From an uncultured Clostridia bacterium (GTDB lineage: Bacteria > Bacillota > Clostridia > Christensenellales > Aristaeellaceae), in assembly GCA_934615235.1 (NCBI GenBank), contig CAKTTL010000002.1, forward strand, positions 6,184 through 70,183: a stretch of DNA of 64,000 nt, written 5' to 3'. The translations under genes were made by a program, and so were the position numbers. Position 1 is the first letter of the stretch; each line of letters begins with the position of its first letter. The notes under the pieces are model-generated. The model had not been told where the DNA came from, did no database searches, and saw only the letters and a list, made by a program, of their open reading frames with translations. Below, piece after piece: positions 36,773 to 57,954 of this stretch.

Positions 36773-38126
36773 GATAAGGTACAATAAATTGCGCAAAAAG
36801 GAGAAGGGATAAAAGAAGACATAGTTTGCAGACTCTGGTAGAATGAAGTTGCGAGACAGCATTCTGAAAGGAGACAGCAAACTATGTCCGAGAAAATTGT
36901 ACAGCTAAACGAGGAAGTAATCAAGGGACAGATCAAGGAATTGGTCCGTGACAGCGTGGAAGAAACGCTGAATGAGCTGCTGGAGAAAGAGGCGGAATCG
37001 CTGACGCAGGCGGCCCGCTACGAGCGCAGCGAGGCCCGTTAGGGCTATCGCAGCGGCCACTATGACAGGAACCTTACCACGACCTCCGGTGACGTTACGC
37101 TCCATATGCCGCGGCTCAAGGGCGTTTCCTTCGAGACGGCTATCATCGAGCGGTATCGCCGCCGGGAGAGCAGCGTGGAAGAAGCACTCATTGAGATGTA
37201 CCTGGCAGGTGTTTCCGTGCGCCGTGTGGAGGACATCACCGAGGCTCTGTGGGGCAGCAAAGTCTCGCCTGCCACCATCAGTGAGCTGAACAAGAAAGCC
37301 TACGTCCACATCGAGGACTGGCGGAACCGCCCTTTGCAGGGTGGTCGGTATCCGTATGTCTATGTGGATGGCATTTATCTGCGCCGCAACTGGGGCGGAG
37401 AATACGAAAATGTCGCCATTTTGGTGGCAATCGCCGTGAATGAGGACGGTTTCTGTGAGGTCTTGGGTGCTGCCGAGGGGATGAAAGAGGACAAGGCAAG
37501 TTGGGTCAGCTTCTTTCAGTGGCTTCGCGGGCGCGGCCTGAACGGCGTGAAGCTCATCGTCGGCGACAAGTGCATGGGGATGCTGGAGGCTGTGGGCGAA
37601 GTATTCCCGGATGCCAAATATCAGCGCTGCATCGTGCATTTCTACCGCAATGTTTTCTCCGTTGTACCCAAATCAAAGGTCAAGATCGTGGCGAAGATGC
37701 TCAAGGCAATCCATGCACAGGAGAGCAAGAAAGCCTCCCGCGAGAAGGCAAAGGCTGTTGTTGCCGAGTTAAAAACAATGAAGCTGAAGGAGGCCGCCAA
37801 GAAAGTCGAGGACGGCATTGAAGAAACGCTGACCTATTGTGATTTTCCGAGCGAGCACTGGACGCGCATTCGCACCAACAATGTAATTGAGCGGCTGAAC
37901 CGCGAGGTTCGCCGCAGGACCCGCGTGGTGGGGACGTTCCCGGATGGAAACTCCGCCCTGATGCTGGTCTGTGCCAGGTTTCGCCACGTGGCAGGCACCC
38001 AGTGGGGCAACAAAAAGTACATGAACATGAAGCATTTGGAGGCAGCTCTGGACGACGCCTTCATTGCCGGCTGACTTCATTCTGCCAAGTCTGCAAACAT
38101 TTTTGCGCATAAACCTTGACGGCAAC
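36773..38126 (+). mobile_element. IS256-family insertion sequence (~1354 bp) with an 8-bp target site duplication
   Basis: GCCGCCTA occurs at 36765-36772 and 38127-38134, directly flanking the element. The left end GATAAGGTACAATAAATTGCGCAAAA and the reverse complement of the right end GTTGCCGTCAAGGTTTATGCGCAAAA form imperfect terminal IRs. Subterminal inverted repeats lie at 36824-36848 and 38075-38098. Confidence 0.8.
36884..38074 (+). pseudogene. IS256-family transposase interrupted by one in-frame TAG (codon 53)
   Basis: MSEKIVQLNEE...ARYERSEAR-TAG(37040-37042)-GYRSGHYDRNL... continues in the same frame into the 322-aa track ORF (37106-38074), which carries the DDE-type MULE domain. Confidence 0.8.
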
Positions 38127-38405: not shown

Positions 38406-39653
38406 TTATTTTTCTCGAAAATGTTTAGGGGAAAACCCGGTCATCCTTTTTACGAAACGATTGAAAGTTGATCGGCATTCAAAGCCTCCAATTTCGCTGA
38501 TCTCATCTAAGGTTAACTGTGGATTTTTCATTAGCTCTATCAGCGACTTAATTTTGCAATCGGCAATATAGTTGGACAAGTTCATCCCCATATGCTTGAG
38601 AAAAAGACGCGACAGGTATGAAGCGTTGTAGCCAGCCACTTTGGCTAAGGTTTCTAACCGCACATCGCCAAAGAGGTTTTTCTGAATGTATTCAGTTACA
38701 GGCTTTAGAATATATTTCGAGTATGAAGGCGGTGAATCAGATTGCAGTTCATGAACATAGGAAGATTCTACATCTGAGACATTGTAGTGCTTCATTCGTT
38801 CAAGCTGTGCATAAAAGCCTCCATCTTCGCGAATGGATGGTGAAAACAGACAAACTGTCGTATAGCCAGACATTTCAGAGAATTGCTCCACAACGCTGCT
38901 CAACACATCCTGGATGGAATGTATTTCAAATTCCTTTTTCAACTGTAAAATCCCCCAGAAACGTTCCTCTGCCATTGTAAAGCATCGAAAAGCTGAAACG
39001 CTTTTCATATGCCTATCACACAGTTTCTTTAATTGCTTTGATGTTTGCTCACTATAAGTATATTGAGGCGACTGAAGATAAAACAGACAAACCGGATCAT
39101 CAACTTCGGCACACTGCAGGGCTCTCAAGGCATCTCGATAGCTGCGTGGATCTCTGGCATAGCTGCCACGAATCAGATTTCTCATGGTTTCTTGTAGCAG
39201 ACATTCAACCTGCTCGTCTGCTGAATTCTGCGCAGTCAGTAAGTGTTCAATATCCTGCATTTGAGAATCCAGCATGTGCAATGCGCGTAAAATCTCACTT
39301 ATGAGCATTTCATCACTTTCTGATTTTAGCACGTAGGCGAATACGTCTTCCTGAATCGCAGAACGGGCATAGCTAAAATCGGCGTGAGCTGTTAAAATGA
39401 TTGTTTTGCACTCTTGCCAACGCTGACGGACGATGTGGGTGAGCTGCAGACCATCCAATTTTGGCATTTGAATGTCAGTAATTAAAATATCAATTCGCCT
39501 TCTGCGCATTACAGCCAACGCGGCAATAACAGAATTTGCTTGAAAAATTTCCAGTTCATAGGGAATGTGTTCCTCCAGAAGTAGTGGAATGGTTTGAAGA
39601 ACATGGGGCTCGTCATCGACAATCAGAACCTGATATATCTGTTTTTCACTCAT
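38406..39653 (-). CDS. Two-component response regulator, REC + AraC-type HTH (YesN-like), cassette 1
   Basis: VLIVDDEPHVL..DILITDIQMPKLDGL receiver plus a C-terminal AraC HTH (..GYNASYLSRLFLKHMG..). Confidence 0.88.
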   Translation of the reverse strand: MSEKQIYQVLIVDDEPHVLQTIPLLLEEHIPYELEIFQANSVIAALAVMRRRRIDILITDIQMPKLDGLQLTHIVRQRWQECKTIILTAHADFSYARSAIQEDVFAYVLKSESDEMLISEILRALHMLDSQMQDIEHLLTAQNSADEQVECLLQETMRNLIRGSYARDPRSYRDALRALQCAEVDDPVCLFYLQSPQYTYSEQTSKQLKKLCDRHMKSVSAFRCFTMAEERFWGILQLKKEFEIHSIQDVLSSVVEQFSEMSGYTTVCLFSPSIREDGGFYAQLERMKHYNVSDVESSYVHELQSDSPPSYSKYILKPVTEYIQKNLFGDVRLETLAKVAGYNASYLSRLFLKHMGMNLSNYIADCKIKSLIELMKNPQLTLDEISEIGGFECRSTFNRFVKRMTGFSPKHFREK

Positions 39654-41343
39654 TAGTTATTTCTCCTCGATTAGATAGTCTAAGTTCTACGCAAAGTCCG
39701 CCAAGAACGCTTCTGGAAAGTGTCATGCCGGCTGATTGATCATAAAACAGCACCAATCTGCGTCGGATGTTATATAAGGCCGTTATGTTGTCGGTTGTAC
39801 GTTCAGTTGTTGATTTCTGCATTTCCCAGAGTTTTTCATCATCCAACGAAGTTCCGTTATCTTCAATGCGAATAACAAGCTGTTCACCTTCCGTTTCGAA
39901 AGTGGTTCTGATCAATAACCTCTCCTGATCGTGCATTGCATAAGAAATGGCGTTTTCATAGATGGGCTGTATGATCAAACGTGGTACAATAATCCGACTC
40001 CACTTTTCGGGAATAGGTGCTTGCTCTTGAACCAGCTTTGCGCCAAAGCGCATGGCCTGAATGGCCAGATAGTTTTTTGCATGCTCGTATTCATCGTTCA
40101 GTGGAACCTCCATTTCTCCGGTGGAGGACAGGTATTTAAAATAATCTCCTAGATGCTGACTAAGAATCATGGCATGCTCTGTGTCCTCGTAGGCGATCAT
40201 GTGCCGCAGCAGATATAAAGTATTAAAGAGAAAATGCGGATGAATTTGTGCTTGTAGATGCTTCAATTCCAGTTTGCTGGTATATATTTCATACTTATAA
40301 TTACTGTTGATGAGCCTTTCGATTTGTTGCATTGTAAAATTCAAACCGTCAAACAGCTGGTTAAATTCCCTAGCAACGGGTTTAGAGGTGATTCGCTGAG
40401 TCATATCGCCTTTTTGCATTGCTTCCATGGCCTTCACCAGCTTTTTAACAGGGAAAACGATGGTTTTCCGAAGGCTTCTAAAACATAAAATAATAAGCGG
40501 AACGCATAACACTAGAAAAAGCATAAGCGTTAGTAGCTGCTTTCGCTCTTCTGTGAACACTTCATTGGCGATTAGGTATTTATTTAAATCGCTGTTCAGA
40601 ATATCCGAATGAACGGAGACTACTTCGTAGGCCTTACGTTGGACATTTGCCAAATTGCATTGGCGCTGATTGGATAGCAAAACCATTCCGTTACCATAAT
40701 CCATCATAGTAGGTTGATCTGAACACGGTTCCACGGATAACATAGCTGTCAATTCCGCGATATCCAGGTGCGCAATCATCATAATTTGCGGGGCATGCCC
40801 GGGAAAAAGCAGTATTAGAAAAAAATCATTTTTTTCCTGATCATAATTCAAGACTTCGGGAATGGCCTGATTCAAAATGATGTCGTAGTCGCTTGCCGAT
40901 ACGCTGCGTAAACCTGCCTTGGAGGAAATGCTTTTTTCGTGCGTAACATAATAGACCTCCAGGCTTTTTACCATGGAGTTTTGAATACAAAAATTCTGTA
41001 AAGTCGTACTGATGCGTCGTACTGTCAAATAGTATTCACGACGGCTGTAATGGTCGTAATAGCCATAAAAGCTGATTAAATCCGCATTAATGTTGGCGTT
41101 GCTCAATAACTGGCGCAGGTTGAATTGAATGGATGCGATTTCCTTTTCTAGCATTTTTTTTGTAAATTGCATTCCTTGTTCCACAAGTGCGACAGTATTA
41201 CTGTGCAGCTTATTGATAGAAGTGTGAATCGTCATTCCTCCGAAAAAAAGGATTGGAAGAACCACAGCAAAAAATAAAGCGATAATCCTGGACGATACGC
41301 TGGGACGCGTTTGGGTCACTGCAAACACCACACATTTTTTCAT
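39646..41343 (-). CDS. Sensor histidine kinase (YesM-like: 2 TM + extracytoplasmic domain, HAMP, His_kinase/HATPase), cassette 1
   Basis: 565 aa with the LQAQIHPHFLFNTL phosphoacceptor box typical of the LytS/YehU-YesM class. Overlaps the RR gene by 8 nt. Confidence 0.88.
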   Translation of the reverse strand: MKKCVVFAVTQTRPSVSSRIIALFFAVVLPILFFGGMTIHTSINKLHSNTVALVEQGMQFTKKMLEKEIASIQFNLRQLLSNANINADLISFYGYYDHYSRREYYLTVRRISTTLQNFCIQNSMVKSLEVYYVTHEKSISSKAGLRSVSASDYDIILNQAIPEVLNYDQEKNDFFLILLFPGHAPQIMMIAHLDIAELTAMLSVEPCSDQPTMMDYGNGMVLLSNQRQCNLANVQRKAYEVVSVHSDILNSDLNKYLIANEVFTEERKQLLTLMLFLVLCVPLIILCFRSLRKTIVFPVKKLVKAMEAMQKGDMTQRITSKPVAREFNQLFDGLNFTMQQIERLINSNYKYEIYTSKLELKHLQAQIHPHFLFNTLYLLRHMIAYEDTEHAMILSQHLGDYFKYLSSTGEMEVPLNDEYEHAKNYLAIQAMRFGAKLVQEQAPIPEKWSRIIVPRLIIQPIYENAISYAMHDQERLLIRTTFETEGEQLVIRIEDNGTSLDDEKLWEMQKSTTERTTDNITALYNIRRRLVLFYDQSAGMTLSRSVLGGLCVELRLSNRGEITNE

Positions 41344-41604
41344 TTTCTACAGTGTATCATAAGCATTTTGAGAACGCAAACCCAATCCTAAAAGAAGAAT
41401 AAAGCAATAAATGTATATGGGCAAAGGGTTTTCCAGGGCATGGTAAACTTTTGCATTAAAAATGTAAAAATCTGCAAAAAACATGGCGGAAGGTGCCGAG
41501 TATATCAAAAAACGAAAAAAATTCTTGATTTTGCATCATTGAATAGTGACGATAAGTTATTATAATACATAGTACAAGGTAACCAAATAAAGGAGGTCTG
41601 TCTT

Positions 41605-43215
41605 ATGAAGAAACTACTCTCAATTCTTCTAACTGTGGTCATGGTTTTCTCTGTTTCCTCTGCTTTTGCGTATGAACGCGGCGAATACGAAGCAACACCC
41701 GTGCCAGTTACCATCACCAGTGCCAATATGCTGGATGTAACTCGTCAGTTTGACGAGAACAACCCTGACAAACGTAACATTAGCGAAAACCGTTGGGTTA
41801 CGGCCTATAAAGACTATCTGAATGTTGAGCTGCAGTACAAGTGGGTAGCGACTGACAGTGAGACCTCGGCTGCCAAGTGGAGCACGGCCATTGCCAGCAA
41901 TGATCTTCCTGATTTCGCTATGGTTGGGAATAATGAATATCAACTTTTGCTGGAATCTGGGCTGATTGCGGACTGCTCAGAAGCATGGGATAAGTACATT
42001 TGTCCCGAATATAAAGCGTTGCTGGACGATTCATCTATTGCACAGGTAACCTTTAATGGCAAAATGATGGGCTTCCCTTATCCGACGAAAGGATACATGG
42101 GTGCAAAAATGCTCTTCGTCCGTCAGGACTGGCTGGATCAGCTCGGCCTCGAATATCCACATACGCTGGAGGAGGTTATTGCCGTAGCCAAAGCTTTTAA
42201 GGAAGCAAAGCTTGGCGGTGACGATACCATGGCGCTTATGGTGTCGAATGAGGACGATGGGCATATTTCAGGCCTGATGAACGTGATGGGGGCATATTAC
42301 GATTATTGGGTTGAGGATGAAAACGGAAAAGTTGTCTGGAGCAATACTCAGCCTGCCATGCGCGAAGCGCTGCTGAAATTGCAGAACATGTATTCTGAAG
42401 GCCTAATCAATGAAGACTTTGCCGTTGTTACCACTGATTTGGCTAAGGAATATATTGCAGGCGGCAAAGCCGGTATTTTCTATGCCACAAGTTGGGATAC
42501 TACTATGTCTATTCAGGCACTGTACGATAATGATGAAAATGCTCATATTGTAAGCGACTATATTCATGGCATAAACGGCGAGGATGTGAAATTCCAGACC
42601 AATACCCCGATTGTTAGCAAAGTTTTCGTGAACGCCAAGTGCAGCGATGAACAGATCAAGATGATCGCTCAGATGATCAACCTCACTTTTGATCTGACGA
42701 ACTCTTCTGATTTGGAAACTTATCAGAATTATTCTATCGACTCGGATGGTCATATGTGGTTTAAGTATGTCCCCTTTGGTGACAAACCTGTTAGCACCAT
42801 CAACGATATGGCCGCTGCTTATGAGATACAGCTGGCTTATGAAGCAGGTGCTAAGACTTCGGATGACTATGAATGGGAATACACCGATGCAAAGGGCTGG
42901 TATGATTCCTATCTGGACGCGCTCAATGGCGGAAGTACCCCTGACTGGTACTATTTGACCTTTGGCAAGGGCGGCGTTTACACCCAGCTATATGATGCAT
43001 TCTTGCGTGGACTGCATCTTGCAAATGCCTATGTTGGCCTGCCAACTGCTACTCAGCAGATGATGGGAGATGTGCTTGACAGCCAGCTGAAGACGGCTAT
43101 GTTTGAAGTGATCATGGGTGCGGATATCTCTGCCTATGACGATGCCGTAAAAGTTTGGCTTTCCAGTGGTGGCCAGATGATTCTGGATGAGATCAACGAA
43201 GCGTTGGGAAAGTAA
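41605..43215 (+). CDS. Extracellular solute-binding protein, large LplA-like family-1 SBP, cassette 1
   Basis: 536 aa with an N-terminal signal peptide ending SSAFA (no lipobox Cys). Alignable end-to-end with the 536-aa SBP at 56258-57868. Confidence 0.85.
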   Translation: MKKLLSILLTVVMVFSVSSAFAYERGEYEATPVPVTITSANMLDVTRQFDENNPDKRNISENRWVTAYKDYLNVELQYKWVATDSETSAAKWSTAIASNDLPDFAMVGNNEYQLLLESGLIADCSEAWDKYICPEYKALLDDSSIAQVTFNGKMMGFPYPTKGYMGAKMLFVRQDWLDQLGLEYPHTLEEVIAVAKAFKEAKLGGDDTMALMVSNEDDGHISGLMNVMGAYYDYWVEDENGKVVWSNTQPAMREALLKLQNMYSEGLINEDFAVVTTDLAKEYIAGGKAGIFYATSWDTTMSIQALYDNDENAHIVSDYIHGINGEDVKFQTNTPIVSKVFVNAKCSDEQIKMIAQMINLTFDLTNSSDLETYQNYSIDSDGHMWFKYVPFGDKPVSTINDMAAAYEIQLAYEAGAKTSDDYEWEYTDAKGWYDSYLDALNGGSTPDWYYLTFGKGGVYTQLYDAFLRGLHLANAYVGLPTATQQMMGDVLDSQLKTAMFEVIMGADISAYDDAVKVWLSSGGQMILDEINEALGK

Positions 43216-43227
43216 GTATTGGTTTAA

Positions 43228-43266
43228 AGTGGCAGGCACGAATACTGCCTGCCACTTTGTTTTTTT
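43228..43266 (+). terminator. Stem-loop with T-run after SBP gene 1 (intra-operon attenuator/partial terminator)
   Basis: AGTGGCAGGCA...TGCCTGCCACT followed by TTGTTTTTTT. Confidence 0.6.
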
Positions 43267-43275: not shown

Positions 43276-44196
43276 ATGGCGACCATGAAAGCACGATCCA
43301 CTACAAGGGGACAATGGAAACGAAATTTACCCCTACATTTGCTTTTGCTGATGCCGGTTATATTAACCTTTATTTATAAATACATCCCTATGGTAGGCGT
43401 TATCATGGCATTTGAGAACTATAAGCCTGCACAGGGTTTGCTCAAATCTAAGTGGGTCGGTTTGCGCAATTTCCAGTTTCTATTTATGATGCCTGGTTTT
43501 ACAACGGCCGTTTGGAATACGTTTATTATTGCTCTTGGAAAAATTATCTTGGGTATTGTGGTGCCTGTTACCTTTTCACTGATGCTCAACGACCTTAAAA
43601 GTCCTCTTCTCAAGCGGAGCATTCAGACTGTGATCTATATGCCACATTTCATTTCATGGGTTTTGATGGCAGGCATCGTTAACCGGTTACTGGCTCCCAA
43701 CGGGCTGGTGAATCAGTTCATAGTTGCATTGGGTGGAAAATCTAAAGTTTTTTTGGCGGATAAATCAATTTTTCGTCCTCTTCTGTGGATTACTGAAATC
43801 TGGAAAGAATTCGGTTATGGTACAATTGTCTATTTGGCAGCAATCTGCGCAATTGATACAACCTTGTATGAAGCTGCTGTTGTGGATGGTGCCGGCGCAT
43901 GGCAGCAAATGATTCATGTTACACTGCCAGGTCTGATTCCTACAATCATCCTGATGACGGTTTTGTCGTTGGGTAATATTCTGAATGCAGGCTTTGATCA
44001 AGTTTTTAACTTGTATTCTGAAATCGTATACAAGACAGGCGATATTATTGATACTTTTGTTTATCGTCTTGCTTTTAATAATGCACAGTTCAGTATATCT
44101 ACAGCGGCAGGTTTGTTTAAGTCCTGCATTTCGTGCGTAATGATCGTAGTGTCTTATATTATTTCTTACCGTGTCAGCGGATATCGCGTGTTTTAA
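43276..44196 (+). CDS. ABC transporter permease (LplB/CUT1-type), cassette 1
   Basis: 306-aa 6-TM protein with the EAA-loop region (..YEAAVVDGAGAWQQMIHVTLP..). Confidence 0.88.
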   Translation: MATMKARSTTRGQWKRNLPLHLLLLMPVILTFIYKYIPMVGVIMAFENYKPAQGLLKSKWVGLRNFQFLFMMPGFTTAVWNTFIIALGKIILGIVVPVTFSLMLNDLKSPLLKRSIQTVIYMPHFISWVLMAGIVNRLLAPNGLVNQFIVALGGKSKVFLADKSIFRPLLWITEIWKEFGYGTIVYLAAICAIDTTLYEAAVVDGAGAWQQMIHVTLPGLIPTIILMTVLSLGNILNAGFDQVFNLYSEIVYKTGDIIDTFVYRLAFNNAQFSISTAAGLFKSCISCVMIVVSYIISYRVSGYRVF

Positions 44197-44205: not shown

Positions 44206-45093
44206 ATGATGATACGCTATCAAAATAGTCTCTCCAGAAAATCTTTTGTAATTCTAAATCATTTTATGACGATCCTCATCTGCCTCATCTGCCTCTTGCC
44301 ACTTATCTATGTGCTGGCTATCTCGTTAAGCAGCAAAGAATATATTATAGCAGGCAAAGTAACCCTGTTTCCTAAAGGATTTACTTTGTCTAATTATCAA
44401 TATGTGATGAAGGATGCGCAGTTTTATACGTCATTTGGTGTTTCTGTATATCGAACGTTGCTTGCGGTTGTTGTGCAGATGGTAATGACTATTTGCGCAG
44501 CCTATCCACTATCTATCAGCAAGTACAAGTTCAGACAGCGCCCTCTTTATGCGTGGTATTTCATTATTACTATCATTTTCAATGGTGGCATGATTCCCAC
44601 CTATCTGGCTGTGAGTAATACAGGATTGCTTAATACAATTTGGGCTTTGATCATCCCCGAGGCAGTCCCTGTATTCAACATCATTCTATTGTCGAACTAT
44701 ATGAAGACTTTGCCCGATGCGCTAAGCGAATCCGCGTCACTGGATGGTGCAGGACATATTCGTATCATGCTGCAAATCATTTTGCCTCTCTGCATTCCTT
44801 CCCTGGCTACTCTTACCTTGTTTGTGATGGTAGGCGCATGGAATGAATGGTTTGCCGGTATGTTATATATCAACAATCCCAATCTTTTCCCGTTGCAAAC
44901 TTATTTGCGTGCTTTGATTGTGGAAGTTGATATAAATCAAATGAGTGATCTGAATTCTATGGCAAATCTTGTTGCAAGTGTTGGCGCAGACACCGCTAAA
45001 ATTTTCCTTGCAATGATTCCGATTCTGTGCGTATATCCGTTTTTGCAAAAGTATTTTGTGAACGGGTTGGTCGCAGGAAGCGTAAAAGAGTAA
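44206..45093 (+). CDS. ABC transporter permease (LplC/CUT1-type), cassette 1
   Basis: 295 aa with ..SASLDGAGHIRIMLQIILPL.. as the EAA loop. Confidence 0.88.
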   Translation: MMIRYQNSLSRKSFVILNHFMTILICLICLLPLIYVLAISLSSKEYIIAGKVTLFPKGFTLSNYQYVMKDAQFYTSFGVSVYRTLLAVVVQMVMTICAAYPLSISKYKFRQRPLYAWYFIITIIFNGGMIPTYLAVSNTGLLNTIWALIIPEAVPVFNIILLSNYMKTLPDALSESASLDGAGHIRIMLQIILPLCIPSLATLTLFVMVGAWNEWFAGMLYINNPNLFPLQTYLRALIVEVDINQMSDLNSMANLVASVGADTAKIFLAMIPILCVYPFLQKYFVNGLVAGSVKE

Positions 45094-45102: not shown

Positions 45103-45840
45103 ATGATTATGGAACTGCGTTGCAAAAAAATTATTATTTCAGGCGGCGGAAGTGGTATCGGTCTTGGTATTGCTCGCAAATGCGTATCGCTTGGGGCGCA
45201 AGTGGTGCTTATGGGACGAACTGAGTCTAAATTACGCTGTGCCACAGATGAACTGGGCGAACGAGCCCATTATCATGTGCTGGATGTAAGTGATATTTCT
45301 GCCTTTTCGGCGGCAATCGATGCGGCGTGTACAATTATGGGAGGGGTGGACGGTTTGGTAAACAGTGCTGGCGCATGCGCCTATACCCATGAATGGGGAG
45401 CAGGAATGTTCGAGCAAACAGAGGATGAATGGGATAAAGTGATGGATACCAATGTAAAGGCCCCTTTTTTCCTTTCGCGTGCAGTACTAAGCTATATGAT
45501 GACCCATAAGGTAGCGGGAAACATTCTCAATGTTGTTTCAGAAGCAGCCTTTGTTCCAGCATCTGCCAGCTATGGCGCCAGCAAGCACGCGCTCCGCGCG
45601 CTGACCGCGGGACTTTCACAAGCCGCTATATGTTATGGTGTTGTGGTCAACGGCATTGCGCCCGGTACAACTGCAACGGATTTTGTTGATGTTTCCACAG
45701 AGCTTGCCATGCATCGCCAGGCGAATGGTCGTTTGGGAACAGTAGAAGAGATGGCAGAACTTGCTGCATTTCTTATGAGCCGTGAGGGTGAAAACATTAT
45801 TGGTCAAACGATTCTATCCTGTGGCGGAAGTACATTTTAA
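45103..45840 (+). CDS. Classical short-chain dehydrogenase/reductase (SDR)
   Basis: SGGGSGIGLG cofactor motif, NSAG, and catalytic S...YGASK (YxxxK). There is a 9-nt gap from the permease and a 12-nt gap to GRE1. Confidence 0.88.
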   Translation: MIMELRCKKIIISGGGSGIGLGIARKCVSLGAQVVLMGRTESKLRCATDELGERAHYHVLDVSDISAFSAAIDAACTIMGGVDGLVNSAGACAYTHEWGAGMFEQTEDEWDKVMDTNVKAPFFLSRAVLSYMMTHKVAGNILNVVSEAAFVPASASYGASKHALRALTAGLSQAAICYGVVVNGIAPGTTATDFVDVSTELAMHRQANGRLGTVEEMAELAAFLMSREGENIIGQTILSCGGSTF

Positions 45841-45852
45841 AGCGGAGGTTAT

Positions 45853-47949
45853 ATGATGATTAGATCCGAAGCAAGTCCACGAGTAAAACGTCTGTTTGAG
45901 ATGGTTCAGGAAAATCCAATGGTGCGTGGTGAACTGGATTACTATCATCCTGGACGGCAAAAATATTTGTTTCTGAAAGGCTGGATTGTGAACAATCAAG
46001 TTTTTTCAGTTCGCCTGCATCGGGCCTATGCAGAAGCATATGTGTTGGAACATATGCGACCTGTGATAGCCCACGACGAATTGATTGTTGGAACGCCTGA
46101 ACTGCAGAGCCTGACGTCGGCTGAACAGAAAGAAATGGAAAATCTGCAATGGGTTGAAAAAAGCATGCAGCGTTATAATGGCCGCCGGGGACACATGACG
46201 CTGGACTGGGCTAAACTGCTCAGATTGGGTGTAAATGGAATGCTGGAAGAGTTGCAGACTAAACGCGCAGCGTTAGATATCGAGAAAAACGAAGATCTCT
46301 CCAAGGATGAATTCTATGAGGGATGCATTGTGGAACTTACTGCCTTACTGGGACTCGCAAGACGCTATGCACAGGCAGCGCGAGAAATGGGAAAAGATGA
46401 TGTTGCGGATATTCTTGAACGTGTCCCGGCTCAGCCTGCTAAAACATTTCGCGAAGCACTTCAATCAATTCATTTTTATGTATTCACGCTCTGGGACCTA
46501 TACTTCTTTGGAAGAATAGATCAGTTCCTGATTGACTATTATCGTAAAGATATTGCAGATGGAATTTTAACACACGAGGAAGCGCAGGAACTTGTGGATT
46601 GTCTGATGCTTCTAACCGCGGAATACATCTCAGCAGATTCTGTGCAGGTATGTACCATTGGTGGGCGCGATCCTAAAGGAAATCCTGTAGATAATGAAGT
46701 AACGCATCTGTTTTTGCAGGCCTGTACCCATGCACCCGTTCAGACTGCGCAGATAGCCCTTTTGGTACGAAATGACACGCCACAGGAAACACTGCGTTTT
46801 GCAGTTGAGCAACTGGCACAAGGGTGTTCTCAACCGCAGTTGTATAATGATGATGTCATTACTCGTTCTATGCGAAGGTGGGGATTCCCAGAAGAGCAGT
46901 GTCATGATTATGGGAATTGTGGGTGTGTGGAAATTGTTCCCTGCAACTGTTCGGGCATTTTTACTGTAAGCCCCTATCATAATCTTGTTGCCATGCTGTT
47001 GGAAGCGCTTCATACAGAACCTGAGGATTATGAGACACTAAAAAAGCGTTTTGCAGAAATTGTTAACCGCGAAGTGCGAAAGGAGAACATTCGCGAACGC
47101 CGTGACCAAATGGAGCGAACCCGAAACGGAAATGAATGCCTGCGCGTATCCTGCCTGGTAAATGACTGCATTGCGCGTGGAATGTCCATTGATGAAGGCG
47201 GTGCACGTTATAATCATATACAGCCTAACTTTTTGGGTATGGCAAATGTGGTGGATGGACTGGTAGCAGTTAACCGGTTGGTGTATGAAAGCAAAGAGTA
47301 TACGCTTTCACAACTACTGGACATTCTGGATAGCAACTTTGAAAAAGATCCTTTGTTACGCATGCGTATTATACATAAACTTCCACACTTTGGCACCAAT
47401 GAACCGGAAACGGATGCATTAATGCATTGGCTTGGCGAAATACTTCTAGCCAGTTGTAAGGGGTTGACATCCTATCGGAATGAAGATCCTTGCGTACCGG
47501 GTGCTTTTTCCTACAAGGAGCATAGCCGTCATGGAAGTCGGACAGGCGCATCACCGGATGGGCGACTTGCAGGAATGGCTTTGGCAGCAGGTTCGAGTGC
47601 CGTTCAGGGAATGGAAACCGCTGGACCTACTGCTGCATTATGTTCAAACCTGGCTTGGGAACAGGAAGCTTTTCTTGGTGGCATTGCTAACAATTTGATG
47701 TTTTCTAAGAAGCAAATGAGTGGTGAGTCGCTTGAAAAAATGGTTGAATTGGTTAGACACTTTTTCGCACAAGGTGGCATGCAGCTTCAAATTAATATTA
47801 CTGATAGAGAAACGCTTCTGAAAGCACAGATTGAACCGGAAAAGTATCGCGACTTATTGGTTCGAATTGGTGGATTCAATGCTCGTTTTGTAGCCTGCGA
47901 ACCAGAACTTCAGCAAGAGATTATCGAACGTAATGAACATGTTATCTGA
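45853..47949 (+). CDS. Glycyl radical enzyme, PFL2/dehydratase-like class, unusually short (698 aa), substrate unknown (GRE1)
   Basis: C-terminal glycyl radical motif VRIGGFNARF (Gly674, nt 47872-47874). Thiyl loop G-C-V-E (Cys358, nt 46924-46926, and Glu360). GGARYN and SPDGR blocks present. Confidence 0.9.
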   Translation: MMIRSEASPRVKRLFEMVQENPMVRGELDYYHPGRQKYLFLKGWIVNNQVFSVRLHRAYAEAYVLEHMRPVIAHDELIVGTPELQSLTSAEQKEMENLQWVEKSMQRYNGRRGHMTLDWAKLLRLGVNGMLEELQTKRAALDIEKNEDLSKDEFYEGCIVELTALLGLARRYAQAAREMGKDDVADILERVPAQPAKTFREALQSIHFYVFTLWDLYFFGRIDQFLIDYYRKDIADGILTHEEAQELVDCLMLLTAEYISADSVQVCTIGGRDPKGNPVDNEVTHLFLQACTHAPVQTAQIALLVRNDTPQETLRFAVEQLAQGCSQPQLYNDDVITRSMRRWGFPEEQCHDYGNCGCVEIVPCNCSGIFTVSPYHNLVAMLLEALHTEPEDYETLKKRFAEIVNREVRKENIRERRDQMERTRNGNECLRVSCLVNDCIARGMSIDEGGARYNHIQPNFLGMANVVDGLVAVNRLVYESKEYTLSQLLDILDSNFEKDPLLRMRIIHKLPHFGTNEPETDALMHWLGEILLASCKGLTSYRNEDPCVPGAFSYKEHSRHGSRTGASPDGRLAGMALAAGSSAVQGMETAGPTAALCSNLAWEQEAFLGGIANNLMFSKKQMSGESLEKMVELVRHFFAQGGMQLQINITDRETLLKAQIEPEKYRDLLVRIGGFNARFVACEPELQQEIIERNEHVI

Positions 47950-48853
47950 TAAAAAAAGTGTATCGGGGTTGGTTTCAAACATCCAACGATTCTCGCTGAA
48001 CGATGGCCCAGGGATTCGTACAGTTGTTTTTCTGAAAGGATGCCCACTAAAATGCCCATGGTGTCATAACCCTGAATCTCGTCGGTTCTATCCTGAAATT
48101 ATGCTTGACGAGAAAAAATGTGTTGGCTGTGGCCAGTGCACAAAAACGTGTACCTTACATCACTTTGTCGATGGACAGCATTTTATCGATAGAGAAAGAT
48201 GCAAACATTGCGGTCTTTGCGCACAGATATGTCCTACTAACGCACTGACACTAGTTGGAAAGTGCATGACGGTTGAGGAAATCTACCAGGAGGCAATGCA
48301 AGACTATGGATTTTGGGGAGAATCAGGTGGTATTACGTTATCAGGCGGAGAGCCATTAGCGCAGCCTGAATTTTCTATGGCAATTCTGCGGCAGTTTCAT
48401 GAAAAAGGGATTCATTGTGCAATTGAAACCAGTGGATATGCGCCATGGGAAGTATTACAACGGTTTATTCAGCAGACTGACTTGTTTCTATTCGATATTA
48501 AGGAAACGAATAGCGAACTTCATCAGGCGTATACAGGTGTAGCAAAGGAGCAAATTATTCAAAATTTAGATTATCTGAACCAGTCGAATGCGAAAGTTAG
48601 GCTCCGTTGTCCCATTATTCCAGGATACAATGACAGGGAAGGACATTTGTTGGAGGTTGCCAAGCTTGCTAATCGTTTTTCTTGCGTAGAACGAATAGAA
48701 ATAGAACCTTACCACCCCTTAGGACGCTCAAAGGCAAGGCAATTGGGAGAAGCTTATGTGTTGAATGATCAGGGTTTTCCGGATGCAGAAAGCGTAGCTC
48801 ATTGGTTAGAAATTCTTGGTTCTGCAACATTGAAACCTGTTGTGCGTTCATGA
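47933..48853 (+). CDS. Glycyl-radical-enzyme activating protein (radical SAM) with two auxiliary ferredoxin-type clusters (AE1)
   Basis: CPLKCPWCHNPE (CX3CX2C), then CVGCGQCTKTC and CKHCGLCAQICP. Overlaps the GRE1 stop by 17 nt. Confidence 0.9.
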   Translation: MNMLSDKKSVSGLVSNIQRFSLNDGPGIRTVVFLKGCPLKCPWCHNPESRRFYPEIMLDEKKCVGCGQCTKTCTLHHFVDGQHFIDRERCKHCGLCAQICPTNALTLVGKCMTVEEIYQEAMQDYGFWGESGGITLSGGEPLAQPEFSMAILRQFHEKGIHCAIETSGYAPWEVLQRFIQQTDLFLFDIKETNSELHQAYTGVAKEQIIQNLDYLNQSNAKVRLRCPIIPGYNDREGHLLEVAKLANRFSCVERIEIEPYHPLGRSKARQLGEAYVLNDQGFPDAESVAHWLEILGSATLKPVVRS

Positions 48854-48866
48854 TGCTAAAACAAAG

Positions 48867-48894
48867 CGCCATGTTTTCAGAGACATGGCGTTTT
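48867..48894 (+). terminator. Intrinsic terminator ending the cassette-1 operon
   Basis: CGCCATGT-loop-ACATGGCG followed by TTTT. Confidence 0.7.
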
Positions 48895-49074
48895 GTAATT
48901 TGTTGCTCTGATAATTGGCGAAAATAAGGAAAGCCATATTCATGCTTGCTTGAAAGTGATAAAAAACAACACGGTAAAACGTAGCAAGTAATGTTGTGAG
49001 ATCAACAAACTACTTTTGACGAAAAATCGACTCGTTATCCTTTGAGGTGGATTCAACTTTGCTTTGTTTTGATA

Positions 49075-49869
49075 TTACCTGTCATCATTCAAAAGGCTGT
49101 ACGCCTTTGGCGAAACGCCCATCTCGCGCTTGAAAACTCGAATAAAGTAACTGGCGCTGGTAAAGCCGGTCAGATCTGCGACGGCGGCAATGCTCATTTT
49201 TTCTTGCTGCAGCAGTTTTGCGGCTGCTGTTATGCGACATTCTGTTAAACACCGGCCAGGGGTTTGGTGGTAGCGTGTTTGGAACAATTCGCCGAAGCGC
49301 CTTTGACTGAGACCGGCGCAATGCGCCGCATCTGCAATGGAAAGCGTGTTGTCTGCGTAGTTGCGCATCAGATAATCTCTGGCTGAGGCTAATTTGTCGT
49401 CGCTGTGCATCGTGGCTGGATCCGCCAATAAAAACAGATGGGATAAAATCTCGTAAAAACAGGAATAACAGGCATAAGCATCTGCCGAGTGGCCGGATGC
49501 CAGGTATTGATTCCAGGAATCCAACAATTTGAAAAAGGCGCTTTTAATTTGCGGCTGATTGCCGCAATTGTATACGGCCAGATGCAGGTCGAAAGGTTTG
49601 ATCGTTGTGAAATGGACGGCAATACAGCCGCCTTTTATTCCATCCATTTCCATTTCGTGACGCAGTACGCGATAATGATCCGTGCTGTTGGCTACCATGA
49701 GCATATCCTTTCCGAATGGCAAAAGAGTCCCTCCGCTTTCGTGCATGGAAAGGCCATGCAGCTTATAGGCCAGAAAATGGGAGGTGTCATTCATATCGCG
49801 TTCCCAACTTCTGGCGTGAACACCGAATCGATATACTTTGATGATTTTATCGAGAATAATCCTGTGCAT
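49075..49869 (-). CDS. AraC-family transcriptional regulator, divergent from GRE2
   Basis: Likely start is the ATG at 49869 (MHRIILDK..) after GGAGGGG. Cupin-like N-terminus plus a C-terminal HTH (..GLSQRRFGELFQTRYHQTPG..). Confidence 0.85.
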   Translation of the reverse strand: MHRIILDKIIKVYRFGVHARSWERDMNDTSHFLAYKLHGLSMHESGGTLLPFGKDMLMVANSTDHYRVLRHEMEMDGIKGGCIAVHFTTIKPFDLHLAVYNCGNQPQIKSAFFKLLDSWNQYLASGHSADAYACYSCFYEILSHLFLLADPATMHSDDKLASARDYLMRNYADNTLSIADAAHCAGLSQRRFGELFQTRYHQTPGRCLTECRITAAAKLLQQEKMSIAAVADLTGFTSASYFIRVFKREMGVSPKAYSLLNDDR

Positions 49870-50032
49870 TCGTTTCCCCTCCAGCGAATAACAGTATAGC
49901 ATATTTTGAAATAGTATGATAGAAAATTTCCGTATAATGCTATTTTTCTTTATCTTGCGATTTACACTGTGACGCGCCGCTCATACAATTAAAACACCGG
50001 ATACACATGAGCTGATCGAAGGAGGAGAGCGT

Positions 50033-52282
50033 ATGAATTTTCAGGCGTTTCAGAAAGAACTGACCCGGTATTATTGGAATGAGGTTGACGATCTGTCGGA
50101 GGCGTTTCGCAAGGCTGCATATGCGTCGCTTGATGAACATTGCATGCCGGAGATGAACGGTTATCAGCGCAAAGCGCTGCAATATAAAACCATCACCGAG
50201 ATGTGCGAACCCAAGCTGTTTCATACTTCGCCTTTCTACTATGAGCTTGGCACCATGAGCGCGCATTGCGACGGTGCGGGAGAGTTCCGTGGGCACGTAC
50301 ACGCGGGGAACTGGAACTATGAACGGTCAGAACACATGTTTGCCGATCAGGATCCCGAGCTGTTTTCTGTCCGCAATGCGCAGGCAGGTAATTTGCTTTA
50401 CCTCATCTGCGGGCCTTACAGTGACACAAGGCAGCATTTTATTTTCAATTGCAAGCCGCTTTTTAAGGGCGGGCTTAAAATGTTGTATGATAACGCGCAA
50501 GAACAGCTTTGCCATGCAAAAACGGAGGAAGAACACGACTTTCTGAATGCGGCGATTGATGGCCTGCTGTGCATGAAGAAAATTTCTGAGAAATTTGCAG
50601 AAGCGGCAAAAGAGAGAGCGAGAACTGCTTCCAGTCCGGATGAAATTTTCAATCTGGAACGAATTGCTGAAGCGGCAGCCTACACGCCGTGGAACGCACC
50701 GCGTACATTTTATGAAGCGCTGAACCTGCTGGCTTTCTGCCGGACGGTTCCGGGCGCATTGGAGGGCGTTGGATATAACACCTTTGGGCGACCGGATGTT
50801 GAATTGCTTCCCTTCTATGAAGGCGATCTTGCTGCCGGGAGACTGACAAAGGAAGAGGCGTATGAGCTCATTCAGGCTTTCCTGCTTACATGGGATTGTC
50901 ATTATGATCATGATATGAAAATGGTCGGATATGCCGATCATGAACTGGAAAACACGTATACGCTCGGCGGCTGTGACGCGGCAGGAAAGCCGGTCTGGAA
51001 TGAACTGACCGCAATGTTCCTGAGGGCGACCAGTCAGCATAAAATTATTTTCCCGAAAATCAAAGTGCGTTTTTCCAGCCAGTCGCCGCGTGAGTTCCTG
51101 GATGCGGCGGATCTGGATGTGATTCACAGCACGTCTTCCATTCTTTATCAGAATGACGAGGCAACGATTGCCGCACTGGTGCGCGGAGGGGCTTCGCTGG
51201 AAGATGCGAGGGATTATCTGATTACCGGTTGCTGGGGCTTGCTGACGAACGGGAACAGAATGGACGATCAGGGCAATTATGTAAATATACTCAAGGCATT
51301 TGAGATGTCCGTTCACAATCGCCAGGATAAAATGCGGGAGTGCAGTCTGTTCTTCCTGCCGTTAGACGGCGCGAAAAGTTTTGAAGACGTATATCGTATT
51401 ACGGTGGAAAACTGTCGGATTCTTTTCCGTGAGCGCAACAGAATGACGTTGAAGGGAAAGGGAATCTGGCCGCAGGTGGATCCGCTTCCGCTGACTTCTT
51501 CTTCAATGGACGGCTGCCTGCAGAGCCGTTTGGATTTGACGAACGGCGGGTGCAAATATCATAACGAGAACTATATGCTGGTTGGCTTCCCGAATATCAT
51601 TGACGCGCTGCTGGCAATCAAGACGCTTTGCTTCGATGAGAAAAGGTACGCGCTGGATGAATTTTTAAGCGCGGTGCGCTGCAATTGGGCGGGGCATGAG
51701 GAAATGCGTCGCGCAGCGACCCGCTGTCCCTGCTGGGGAGATGCAAGCGAGGAATCCAATAAACTGGCTGCACGATTCAATCATGATCTGCTTGAACTTG
51801 CAGGAGAATTGAAAACGCTGTGGCCCGGAGGCCGGTGCGACATCGGGCATTGCACGTATACGGAAATTCGCTTCTGGGCAGAAAAAACGCTCGCGACGCC
51901 TGACGGCAGGCGCAACGGTGATTATTTCTCGCAGGGGCTTACGCCTTCCCGCTTACACAGAATTGAAAGCGTAACGGATGTAATAAACAGCCTTGCCGCG
52001 CTGGATGGCAGCGAGATGGGAGGCAATTCGGTTGTTAACATTATTCTGCCTTCTACCGGAATGACGCTGGATCATTGCGCAGCATTCCTGTATGCATGCG
52101 CGCAGAGCGCGATGGGCTCGCTGCAACTGAACTGCGTTACGAAAGAACAGCTTCTGGACGCGCAGATTCATCCGGAAAAACACCGCGATTTGATCGTTCG
52201 CGTATGCGGCTTTTCCGCACGCTTTACGAGCCTGTCTCCTGAATGGCAGCAGGAGGTGCTTAGTCGCAATTTCTATGATTAA
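50033..52282 (+). CDS. Glycyl radical enzyme with an atypical thiyl loop (749 aa), substrate unknown (GRE2)
   Basis: Glycyl radical motif VRVCGFSARF (Gly726, nt 52208-52210). The Cys loop is I-T-G-C-W-G (Cys400, nt 51230-51232), which has neither the PFL Cys-Cys pair nor the Cys-x-Glu pattern. TPDGRR block present. Confidence 0.88.
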   Translation: MNFQAFQKELTRYYWNEVDDLSEAFRKAAYASLDEHCMPEMNGYQRKALQYKTITEMCEPKLFHTSPFYYELGTMSAHCDGAGEFRGHVHAGNWNYERSEHMFADQDPELFSVRNAQAGNLLYLICGPYSDTRQHFIFNCKPLFKGGLKMLYDNAQEQLCHAKTEEEHDFLNAAIDGLLCMKKISEKFAEAAKERARTASSPDEIFNLERIAEAAAYTPWNAPRTFYEALNLLAFCRTVPGALEGVGYNTFGRPDVELLPFYEGDLAAGRLTKEEAYELIQAFLLTWDCHYDHDMKMVGYADHELENTYTLGGCDAAGKPVWNELTAMFLRATSQHKIIFPKIKVRFSSQSPREFLDAADLDVIHSTSSILYQNDEATIAALVRGGASLEDARDYLITGCWGLLTNGNRMDDQGNYVNILKAFEMSVHNRQDKMRECSLFFLPLDGAKSFEDVYRITVENCRILFRERNRMTLKGKGIWPQVDPLPLTSSSMDGCLQSRLDLTNGGCKYHNENYMLVGFPNIIDALLAIKTLCFDEKRYALDEFLSAVRCNWAGHEEMRRAATRCPCWGDASEESNKLAARFNHDLLELAGELKTLWPGGRCDIGHCTYTEIRFWAEKTLATPDGRRNGDYFSQGLTPSRLHRIESVTDVINSLAALDGSEMGGNSVVNIILPSTGMTLDHCAAFLYACAQSAMGSLQLNCVTKEQLLDAQIHPEKHRDLIVRVCGFSARFTSLSPEWQQEVLSRNFYD

Positions 52283-52290: not shown

Positions 52291-53130
52291 ATGCAGATGA
52301 AAGGCATGCTCTTCGATATTCAGCGCGCTTCCACTGTGGATGGTCCGGGATTTCGTACTACGGTTTTCTTTAAGGGATGTAACCTCCGCTGTGCATGGTG
52401 CCATAATCCGGAAAGTCAGTCTGCTGTGCCGCAGCTGCTGTTTTATCAGGAGCGCTGCACGCATTGTGGACTTTGCGAACGGGTTTGCCCTTACGGGCTT
52501 AGAAAGTGTGATTTGTGCGGAAAATGTGCGGATGCATGTCCGCAGGAGGCGCGCAGCCTGTGTGGGATGGAATATACAGTAGAGGATGCAATGAAGAAGA
52601 TTCTGCCGGATCGTCTGTTCTATCAGACGTCCGGCGGAGGGGCCACTTTCTCGGGCGGCGAGTGTATGCTGCAATTGGGTTTTCTAAAAGAATTGCTTGA
52701 TTCTTGCAAAAAAGAAAAAATTCACACTGCAGTGGATACGGCAGGCGCTGTGCCGTGGAGGTCTTTCGAAGAAATTCTGCCGTATACGGATATGTTTCTC
52801 TATGATGTAAAGAGCATGAATTCTCAGCGTCATAAGGAATATACGGGTGTTGGCAACGAACAGATATTAGAAAACCTGTCGCGCTTGCTGCAGATGCAAA
52901 AACGTGTCTGGGTGCGTGTGCCGATTATTCCGGGGGTAAACGATACGCTGGAGGAGATGCGCGCGCTGCGCGCTTTCCTCCTTGCAAATGGCTATCCGAA
53001 AAAAGTGGAGCTTTTGCCATATCATCGCATGGGCGAAATGAAATGGAAAGCGCTCGGTCAAAAGGCGACGCTTTTCAATCCGCCTTCTGCTGAACAGGTG
53101 GATACGCTGCGCAATGCAGTAAAACCGTAA
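52291..53130 (+). CDS. Glycyl-radical-enzyme activating protein (radical SAM) with two auxiliary cluster motifs (AE2)
   Basis: CNLRCAWCHNPE, then CTHCGLCERVCP and CDLCGKCADACP. Confidence 0.9.
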   Translation: MQMKGMLFDIQRASTVDGPGFRTTVFFKGCNLRCAWCHNPESQSAVPQLLFYQERCTHCGLCERVCPYGLRKCDLCGKCADACPQEARSLCGMEYTVEDAMKKILPDRLFYQTSGGGATFSGGECMLQLGFLKELLDSCKKEKIHTAVDTAGAVPWRSFEEILPYTDMFLYDVKSMNSQRHKEYTGVGNEQILENLSRLLQMQKRVWVRVPIIPGVNDTLEEMRALRAFLLANGYPKKVELLPYHRMGEMKWKALGQKATLFNPPSAEQVDTLRNAVKP

Positions 53131-57868: not shown

Positions 57869-57883
57869 ACACTTTCCCAATTC

Positions 57884-57931: not shown

Positions 57932-57954
57932 TTCCGCAAGCAAGGAGAAAACGC

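Follow-up and report, generated by a model that had tools for sequence, protein, structure and literature searches.

A compact glycyl radical enzyme with a reductase partner in a carbohydrate-importer operon of an uncultured Clostridia bacterium

Introduction

Hidden anaerobic pathways of gut microbes have repeatedly come to light through new functions of the oxygen-sensitive glycyl radical enzymes (GREs), among them the pathways for choline, hydroxyproline, isethionate and anhydroglucitol. According to a 2026 review, whole GRE clades are still without functional assignment (PMC13450708). Here we describe GRE1, a 698-amino-acid (aa) enzyme encoded at 45853..47949 (+ strand) in a stretch of 64,000 nucleotides (nt), hereafter the window, from an uncultured Clostridia bacterium (Christensenellales, Aristaeellaceae; GenBank assembly GCA_934615235.1, contig CAKTTL010000002.1, positions 6,184 to 70,183). 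As judged from alignments and a tree, GRE1 belongs to a compact (~680-730 aa), deep-branching clade that is separate from the characterised GRE families. The superfamily itself is known; what is new is a compact subfamily that is paired with a conserved reductase and set in carbohydrate surroundings. In our preferred reading, to which we give slightly better than even chances, GRE1 would cleave a C-O bond, as an eliminase or isomerase, in an imported alcohol of carbohydrate origin and would be coupled to a carbonyl reductase. A search of the published literature for the compact clade or for a GRE paired with a short-chain dehydrogenase/reductase (SDR) returned nothing relevant, and the 2026 review lists no enzyme of this size or with such a partner (PMC13450708).

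The SDR, GRE1 and activase genes

GRE1 is the fifth gene of a six-gene unit encoding a solute-binding protein (SBP1), two ATP-binding cassette (ABC) permeases, an SDR, GRE1 and the activase AE1, with a YesM/YesN-type two-component system in divergent orientation. An earlier reading made from the sequence alone had described the central part of this unit, and a scripted check found all of its coordinates and features for the GRE1 region exactly where it had placed them.

The SDR gene (45103..45840, + strand, 245 aa) has two in-frame ATG codons. An AGGAG box lies 2-3 nt from the first, which is too close, and is well spaced from the second. Given this spacing and the ENA gene call, which also starts at 45109, the second ATG is more probably the start. 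The SDR stop codon (TAA, 45838-45840) precedes the GRE1 ATG (45853) by 12 nt in the same frame; the GRE1 open reading frame can therefore not be extended upstream. GRE1 has its own ribosome-binding site, GGAGG, 5 nt ahead of the ATG. At its other end, the AE1 ATG (47933) lies inside GRE1, giving a 17-nt overlap up to the GRE1 stop codon (TGA, 47947-47949), and the same overlap is repeated in orthologues of 48-50 % identity (loci L002 and L088). The sequence-only reading had both junctions translationally coupled. AE1 is indeed translationally coupled to GRE1, whereas the SDR-GRE1 junction shows close spacing with a separate ribosome-binding site rather than strict coupling.

AE1 (47933..48853, + strand, 306 aa) is a radical S-adenosylmethionine activase of the GRE type, scoring 335 bits against TIGR02494 (cut-off 174). 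Its CX3CX2C motif, CPLKCPWC, is at residue 37 and is followed by ferredoxin motifs (CxxCxxC) at residues 63 and 90, in agreement with the Pfam assignment (Radical_SAM plus two ferredoxin motifs). Model score, motif and overlap together mark AE1 as the dedicated activase of GRE1. Its best equivalog match is the HypD-activase model, at 305 bits under a cut-off of 425. In the ENA annotation the overlapping start was missed and the protein is only 195 aa long.

Superfamily membership and catalytic residues

Motifs, Pfam, phmmer, an AlphaFold2 model and Foldseek all bear on the identity of GRE1, which is a member of the pyruvate formate-lyase (PFL)-like branch of the superfamily. A PFL-like barrel domain (PF02901, E 2e-98) is followed by a C-terminal Gly_radical domain (PF01228, E 7e-23), in which VRIGG stands for RVxG. 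The radical motif VRIGGFNARF occupies residues 670-679, with Gly674 encoded by GGA at nt 47872-47874. The thiyl loop YGNCGCVEIVPC spans residues 353-364, with Cys358 (TGT, nt 46924-46926) and Glu360 (nt 46930-46932). When GRE1 is aligned by phmmer with sequences of the PDB, GCVE pairs with Cys433/Glu435 of glycerol dehydratase (GDH) and VRIGG with the loop of GDH Gly763.

The Cys358/Glu360 assignment of the sequence-only reading also holds against the Cys-x-Glu loops of YbiW and PflD, and the pair is invariant in 53 family members. Its view of GRE1 as an eliminase-type enzyme is borne out by the motif, by the alignment to GDH, propanediol (PD) dehydratase, CutC and HpsG, and by the fold. Conservation in the family extends well beyond the loop. 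Among 121 sequences, His114 (nt 46192-46194), Met115, Asp118, Gly220, Arg221, Asp223, Cys358, Glu360 and Gly674 are invariant or nearly so; these nine are invariant in the 53-sequence set too, Arg221 nearly so, and Ser367, Pro374 and Asn377 behave likewise.

A compact clade of glycyl radical enzymes

In a collection of 5.8 billion proteins, the 120 best homologues of GRE1 (41-100 % identity) measure 631-733 aa, mostly 677-733 aa, and all possess both Pfam domains. Their names, where given, are automatic labels such as "hypothetical" or "pyruvate formate lyase family". In a library of representatives clustered at 50 % identity, a threshold of E <= 1e-30 takes in 1582 clusters, in effect the entire PFL-like superfamily, and the top ~35 matches, above ~290 bits, are nearly all 684-741 aa long. 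The cluster P0003, which is 79 % identical to GRE1, has 70 member sequences. A neighbour-joining tree puts the compact GREs (~695-750 aa) into one clade; outside it lie the GREs of at least 790 aa from the same scan, YbiW and PflD of E. coli and the second GRE of the window (GRE2). The compact clade is found mostly in uncultured gut Clostridia, in metagenome-assembled genomes (MAGs) from ruminant, chicken and human gut (Hadza and Nepali samples included), and also in Verrucomicrobia, Chloroflexota and Armatimonadota.

The short length of GRE1 is thus a genuine family trait. The sequence-only reading had named a frameshift or misassembly hiding a longer, known dehydratase as the finding that would overturn it. 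It is true that no full-length PFL-like GRE of solved structure is as short as GRE1 (PFL, with 759 aa, and PflD, with 765 aa, come nearest), and the locus lies at a break in GC content beside a transposase fragment. However, this length and the invariant catalytic residues recur in over 100 independent homologues, an independent ENA contig encodes the identical protein, and a 79 % identical orthologue stands in the same operon of an uncultured Clostridia MAG from the human gut (CAKUFI01, locus L006). With a model that is, moreover, confident and complete, we reject the idea of a truncated, frameshifted, misassembled or decaying canonical GRE, to which next to no credence can be given.

The model, built by AlphaFold2 from the 53-sequence alignment, has a mean predicted local distance difference test (pLDDT) of 93.5 and a predicted TM-score of 0.92, with no disordered segment and none below pLDDT 50. 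The predicted fold is a complete ten-stranded GRE barrel. In a Foldseek search of the PDB, the query TM-score is 0.82-0.92, with probability 1.00, for all 50 solved-GRE chains listed. The best matches are the PD dehydratases 9rco and 5i2g and GDH 1r8w (query TM-score 0.92, target TM-score ~0.81); CutC, HypD, YbiW and PflD follow at 0.88-0.92. Sequence identity to any solved GRE is 20-26 %.

The trimming of the scaffold proposed in the sequence-only reading could be located by alignment with E. coli K-12 YbiW (810 aa) and PflD (765 aa), which were fetched for this purpose, and it is shared by the family. About 55 residues are missing between ELIVG (76-80) and His114, just ahead of the first barrel strand. 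The "ESNGHS" loop, which corresponds to the Ser282 loop of GDH, is 5 residues shorter, and peripheral segments have lost ~12 residues at 257-265, ~22 after 391 and 5 near 545. The helices preceding the barrel form the conserved dimer interface of GREs (PMC13450708), a loss that puts the oligomeric state of compact-clade enzymes in question. The trimmed scaffold also shows what the GRE fold can do without, a useful guide for engineering.

Reaction type and substrate pocket

GRE1 cannot be placed in any GRE family that has an NCBIfam model, since its scores are far under the curated cut-offs. The equivalog models for HpsG, HpfG, HypD, CutC, PflD, IAD and HPAD give 183-268 bits where 1000-1150 are needed: NF048011 (HpsG) reaches 268 bits (cut-off 1000), NF043068 (HypD) 251 (1100), TIGR04394 (CutC) 220 (1050), PRK09983 (PflD) 219 (1109), and the arylacetate decarboxylase models NF033715 (HPAD) and NF033718 (IAD) 183 and 230 (1150 and 1100). 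The generic PFL2/glycerol dehydratase model TIGR01774 gives 321.5 bits against 678.2. The tightly packed genes of the operon leave no room for the small-subunit gene of a decarboxylase.

The sequence-only reading had left C-O, C-N and C-S elimination side by side, and the residues now narrow this choice toward C-O. His114 aligns with His164 of GDH, His165 of YbiW and His156 of PflD, and His164 is the proton donor to the leaving hydroxyl in GDH (PMC13450708). The Cys-x-Glu loop itself is common to IslA, IseG, HpsG and CutC, and the three known C-S lyases share the sulfonate anchors Arg183/Gln187/Arg672 (HpsG numbering; PMC13450708). In GRE1 these three positions are Asn109/His114/Ala551. GRE1 was therefore rejected as a sulfonate lyase, and C-O chemistry is preferred because His114 occupies the His position of the C-O-cleaving enzymes and the sulfonate triad is absent.

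For the same reason, we consider it very unlikely that GRE1 is a C-S or C-N lyase which releases sulfite or an amine from a sulfo- or amino-sugar derivative, such as reduced sulfoquinovose or an amino-polyol. The common loop would allow it, and among the NCBIfam equivalog models that of HpsG scores highest on GRE1, albeit far under its cut-off. Elsewhere in the family, GH31 genes lie near the trio of locus L088, and this glycoside hydrolase (GH) family also includes sulfoquinovosidases; a class-III aminotransferase, a GH123 and a GNAT-like gene are found near some members. However, the operon contains neither a sulfite reductase or exporter nor amine-handling genes.

A compact dehydratase of small diols, i.e., of 1,2-propanediol, glycerol or the like, with the SDR as propanol or 1,3-propanediol dehydrogenase, is likewise improbable, if a little less so. 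In its favour, GRE1 is matched best, in sequence and in fold, by GDH 1r8w (E 5e-76) and the PD dehydratases 9rco and 5i2g, the His, Cys and Glu residues are conserved, and the minimal SDR-GRE-activase modules of L002 and L088 resemble a dehydratase with a reductase as electron sink. Yet CutC, HypD and YbiW match almost equally well. Moreover, GRE1 has not kept Ser282, Tyr339, Asp447 and Tyr640, the glycerol-binding residues of GDH (1R9D): Ser282 falls in the deleted loop and the other three are replaced by Val264, Val372 and Phe552. The loci examined showed no genes for microcompartment shells, and an oligosaccharide-type importer with a dedicated sensor is an unlikely investment for diols that diffuse freely. 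By these alignments, GRE1 keeps the catalytic set of C-O-cleaving dehydratases and isomerases around a substrate pocket of its own.

The SDR partner and related loci

The SDR belongs to the classical family (adh_short, E 4e-44) and displays the features of its NADP(H) type: GGGSGIG, Gly-Arg39 after strand beta2, Ser146 and Tyr157-x3-Lys161. No NCBIfam model reaches its cut-off on this protein; the matches are to generic FabG, glucose-dehydrogenase and gluconate-5-dehydrogenase models, which are not specific enough to name a substrate.

The sequence-only reading had taken the adjacent SDR as a sign of an alcohol/carbonyl step before or after the radical reaction. The recurrence of this pairing lends it strong, if indirect, support. 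We define the subclade of GRE1 as the loci whose GRE is at least 42 % identical to it, some 19-20 distinct loci, and in 14 of them an SDR gene lies at most three genes from the GRE (the window, L006, L086, L007, L088, L008, L009, L010, L004, L091, L093, L094, L097 and L103). The gene orders SDR-GRE-AE, AE-GRE-SDR and GRE-AE-SDR (AE, activase) all occur and are spread over Clostridia and Verrucomicrobia. Clostridial GRE-linked SDRs have Gly-Arg after beta2 and verrucomicrobial ones (L004, L010) Ser-Lys, an NADP(H)-type signature, and the Ser...Tyr-x3-Lys triad is present in all those compared.

Several arrangements can be distinguished. The two-component system, ABC importer and SDR-GRE(-AE) genes stand together in the window, L006 and L086. 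Minimal SDR-GRE-AE units with overlapping stop codons are seen in L002/L007, L008 and L088, AE-GRE-SDR-GH43 in L091, and GRE-AE-SDR in L103. In L093, a LacI gene accompanies SDR-GRE-AE, GH127-like genes and a sulfatase, while the SDR-GRE pair of L094 sits in an island rich in integrase and toxin-antitoxin genes. The Verrucomicrobia and environmental contigs (L004, L010 and L097) combine AraC, epimerase-like, SDR, cupin and GRE genes with a GFO/IDH/MocA or activase gene. Upstream of the GRE of L097, the cupin and epimerase-like genes flank a gene for a URO-D-family protein (5956-7113). Corrinoid-dependent methyltransferases are among the members of this family, and this single occurrence might point to methylated substrates.

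Compact GREs less similar to GRE1 (33-41 % identity) mostly stand in simple AraC-GRE-AE units, a minority with a downstream SDR. Over the ~170 related loci whose neighbourhoods were surveyed, the theme is carbohydrate and redox throughout, without a single recurring pathway. Neighbours include GH31, GH43, GH2, GH123 and GH127-like genes, sulfatase, GFO/IDH/MocA and medium-chain dehydrogenase/reductase (MDR) oxidoreductases, PfkB and FGGY kinases, LacI, AraC, IclR and RpiR regulators and sugar transporters. A uronate pathway of the KduD/KduI kind was also considered, as it is raised by the KduD-like verrucomicrobial SDR (220 bits) and the PfkB and IclR genes of L101. It was not adopted: the window SDR is not KduD-like (110 bits) and such a pathway has no apparent role for a radical enzyme.

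The importer and its regulators

Upstream of the SDR, SBP1 (41605..43215, + strand, 536 aa) is a lipoprotein-type solute-binding protein of a carbohydrate ABC importer, as indicated by its solved relatives. These are led by AlgQ2 and AlgQ1, which bind oligosaccharides (E 3e-15 to 1e-12), followed by the ABC-transporter binding protein 4g68 and family-1 solute-binding proteins. Pfam gives no match to SBP1 at E<=0.001; its orthologue in L086 matches SBP_bac_1. The AlgQ1/AlgQ2 matches are too weak and unspecific for a substrate to be deduced from them. The two permease genes (43276-44196 and 44206-45093, + strand) both carry BPD_transp_1, and their orthologues in L006 are 81 % identical.

The divergent two-component system consists of a membrane sensor histidine kinase (39646..41343, - strand; YesM-like, PF06580), assigned by Pfam His_kinase on the identical ENA gene, and a YesN-like response regulator with AraC-type output (38406..39653, - strand; Response_reg and HTH_18). 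The kinase has orthologues at the same position in L006 and L086, and the regulator is conserved with the operon in L006 (56 % identity) and L086. The whole arrangement of two-component system, ABC importer and SDR-GRE is thus conserved in L006 (GRE 79 % identical) and L086 (GRE 60 %).

As to possible transcription signals, a promoter-like site lies 5' of the SBP1 gene (41539..41566, + strand; TTGAAT-16-TATAAT, 10/12 matches), a consensus match only, since such sites are no more numerous in the region than in shuffled sequence. An attenuator-like hairpin within the operon follows the SBP1 gene (43225..43259, + strand; 14-bp stem, then TTTTTTT), and a terminator-like hairpin (48861..48896, + strand; 16-bp stem), also scored on the minus strand, closes the operon right after the AE1 stop codon.

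The GRE1 operon contains no kinase, phosphotransferase system (PTS), aldolase or glycoside hydrolase gene. The imported, unphosphorylated compound is therefore probably the direct substrate of the SDR/GRE pair.

A possible mechanism and its alternatives

According to our preferred reading, the two-component system would sense an extracellular carbohydrate-derived compound, which the ABC importer would take up in unphosphorylated form. AE1 would install the glycyl radical on Gly674, and a thiyl radical on Cys358 would abstract hydrogen from a hydroxyl-bearing (carbinol) carbon. Glu360 would serve as the general base that deprotonates this hydroxyl, and His114 would protonate the oxygen leaving group on the neighbouring carbon, be it a hydroxyl or an ether, ring or glycosidic oxygen. 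The alpha-keto radical would then regain a hydrogen to yield a carbonyl product, and the NADP(H)-type SDR would reduce it. Such a "dehydrate then reduce" scheme would parallel glycerol dehydratase followed by 1,3-propanediol dehydrogenase.

The least certain step is the order in which the SDR and GRE1 act. In the reverse order, a keto-sugar taken up by the importer (1,5-anhydro-D-fructose or another ulose) would first be reduced to the alcohol by the SDR with NADPH, and GRE1 would then isomerise this unphosphorylated alcohol by ring opening or C-O cleavage. Such a pathway would amount to the YbiW/PflD reaction minus the phosphate, or to the logic by which sulfoacetaldehyde reductase supplies IslA, and we regard it as a possible but rather doubtful alternative. 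YbiW and PflD have the same Cys-x-Glu and His set; hydrogen is abstracted at C2 and the C1-O5 bond of anhydro-hexitol phosphates is broken. An SDR feeding a GRE has a precedent in the sulfoacetaldehyde reductase IsfD (PMC6616044). An operon that combines an ABC importer with neither PTS nor kinase agrees with a substrate that enters unphosphorylated, the SDR-GRE-AE trio of L088 lies near two GH31 genes, and the verrucomicrobial loci add GFO/IDH/MocA enzymes. GH31 includes alpha-glucan lyases that produce 1,5-anhydrofructose, and the GFO/IDH/MocA family includes a 1,5-anhydrofructose reductase. However, GRE1 is far below the cut-off of the PflD model and, at 22-24 % identity, no nearer to YbiW and PflD than to the dehydratases. 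The GH31 genes of L088 match weakly, best to alpha-xylosidase and alpha-glucosidase models, and are separated from the trio by other genes. In addition, the operon lacks an aldolase or kinase for the expected 1-deoxy-ketose product.

Several observations also weigh against the preferred reading, C-O cleavage by GRE1 coupled to carbonyl reduction. Its mechanism is inferred at every step, and the NADP(H) preference of the SDR follows from a sequence rule. Since the glycerol-binding polar residues of GDH are not kept, the pocket cannot be modelled on a known enzyme. No SDR gene adjoins the GRE in L087, L096, L099, L100, L101 and possibly L098 (short flanks); these loci carry an AraC regulator, a sodium:solute symporter, GFO/IDH/MocA, GH2, or PfkB and IclR genes. 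The SDRs of other subgroups are ~30-42 % identical to that of the window, which is ordinary for classical SDRs, and the GRE-linked SDRs may be analogous recruits rather than orthologues. Lastly, an ATP-driven importer is a costly route if the pathway is merely an electron sink.

A bolder, and to our mind speculative, proposal is that the compact clade catalyses a type of GRE reaction not yet described, namely the radical cleavage of C-O bonds in sugars, cyclitols or glycosides that carry no phosphate. It might consist in the cleavage of glycosidic or methyl-ether bonds, or in a stepwise reductive dehydroxylation in which the NADPH-dependent SDR completes each cycle. If true, uncultured fibre-degrading gut Clostridia would possess an O2-independent route to carbohydrates beyond ordinary hydrolases and isomerases, and paralogous modules (two in the window, three in the MAG of L009) would each serve a different substrate or step.

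Whatever the reaction, the GRE1 locus offers a tractable entry to the clade: the enzyme is compact, and its activase and conserved reductase are encoded alongside. The ligand of the dedicated binding protein and sensor should be the substrate of the pathway. Since the clade is widespread, a defined function would annotate many "hypothetical" genes.

A second GRE module and mobile DNA

The window contains a second short GRE, GRE2 (50033-52282, + strand, 749 aa; Cys400 at nt 51230-51232), which is 25 % identical to GRE1 and groups with other GREs of 737-765 aa. Its cysteine loop, GCWG, has neither the eliminase Glu nor the second Cys of PFL, and its chemistry is, to judge from this motif, probably different from that of GRE1. 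The activase AE2 (52291-53130) follows, and an AraC regulator (49075-49902) is divergent from GRE2. Farther on come a second YesN/YesM-type two-component system (53134-54354 and 54366-56039, - strand) and a second set of SBP (56258-57868) and permeases (57850-58878 and 58899-59780). Compared with the GRE1 set, identity is 44 % for the SBP, 60 % for the permeases and 26-27 % for kinase and regulator; the two modules appear to import related but distinct compounds. After the second transporter set lies a gene for an 876-aa protein (60091-62721, - strand) with a multi-span N-terminal region and a Sulfatase-family domain (PF00884), presumably resembling an LTA synthase or a phosphoglycerol transferase.

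In the human-gut Ruminococcaceae MAG MGYG-HGUT-04159 (L009), three GRE genes (747, 727 and 765 aa; 6000-17235) and three activase genes are clustered within ~14 kb with genes for two MDR-type oxidoreductases, an AraC regulator and an SDR. Such organisms seem commonly to have multiplied their compact GRE modules.

The GRE1 operon stands in a 43 %-GC stretch, the rest of the window being ~60 % GC. At the left edge of this low-GC island, near 38000, the GC fraction falls from ~0.60 to 0.43 at a fragment of a Mutator-family (IS256-like) transposase (37106..38074, + strand; Transposase_mut, E 6e-89), which is truncated N-terminally and matches only profile positions 81-371. At third codon positions, GC is 0.36-0.51 in the GRE1 operon, 0.53-0.66 in the GRE2 locus and 0.78 in a P-type ATPase gene (30121-32769). 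To the left of the transposase, a stretch of intermediate GC contains a Fic/DOC-family gene (33569-34624, - strand) and an AAA_14 plus DUF4143 ATPase gene (35152-36645), both typical of mobile or defence-associated DNA. The independent ENA contig ends at about window position 37971; judged from the window alone, a chimeric assembly join at the GC break is conceivable.

Other members of the family stand in mobile surroundings. MobL, TraG/type IV secretion-coupling and Toprim genes of an element resembling an integrative and conjugative element adjoin the GRE of L087 (P0009 locus), and two integrases, an insertion-sequence transposase, AbiEii and a ParE/Phd pair surround that of L094 (P0113 locus); these two GREs are 45-50 % identical to GRE1. 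The GC break, the transposase and the mobile contexts of L087 and L094 therefore indicate horizontal spread, and the GRE1 operon itself looks horizontally acquired.

Comparison with known systems

Among the characterised GREs, the C-S lyases IslA, IseG and HpsG have the Cys-x-Glu loop in common with GRE1 and provide the precedent for a reductase that makes the alcohol substrate of a GRE; they differ by their sulfonate triad, which GRE1 lacks, and its scores are far under the cut-offs of their families. CutC and HypD share with GRE1 the fold (query TM-score 0.90-0.91), the loop and the type of activase, whereas their equivalog cut-offs are missed and the loci of the GRE1 family have no choline or hydroxyproline context.

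YbiW and PflD are the GRE isomerases of 1,5-anhydroglucitol-6-phosphate and 1,5-anhydromannitol-6-phosphate and thus act on cyclic polyols derived from sugars. Besides the loop and the aligned His, they illustrate the chemistry envisaged for GRE1, since a C-O bond is broken through hydrogen abstraction at the neighbouring carbinol carbon. Apart from their low identity (22-24 %) and greater length (810 and 765 aa), they differ from GRE1 in their setting: ybiW is found with a sugar phosphatase and the aldolase gene fsaA and pflD with PTS components, a sugar-phosphate context that is absent at GRE1, where an ABC importer and an SDR take the place of PTS, kinase and aldolase.

The closest known systems are GDH of C. 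butyricum (1r8w) and the PD dehydratases (5i2g, 9rco), the best matches of GRE1 in sequence (E 5e-76) and fold (query TM-score 0.92). Identity is nevertheless only 24-25 %, and GRE1 is ~90-120 residues shorter, with a shortened Ser282 loop and Val/Val/Phe in place of Tyr339/Asp447/Tyr640. It is encoded with a carbohydrate ABC importer and a two-component sensor rather than in a dha or microcompartment locus, and its partner is an NADP(H)-type SDR instead of an iron alcohol dehydrogenase. What the two have in common is the ten-stranded barrel, the Cys-x-Glu loop, the His at the position of His164, the Gly loop, an adjacent activase with ferredoxin domains and, if our preferred reading is correct, the logic of a dehydratase followed by a reductase.

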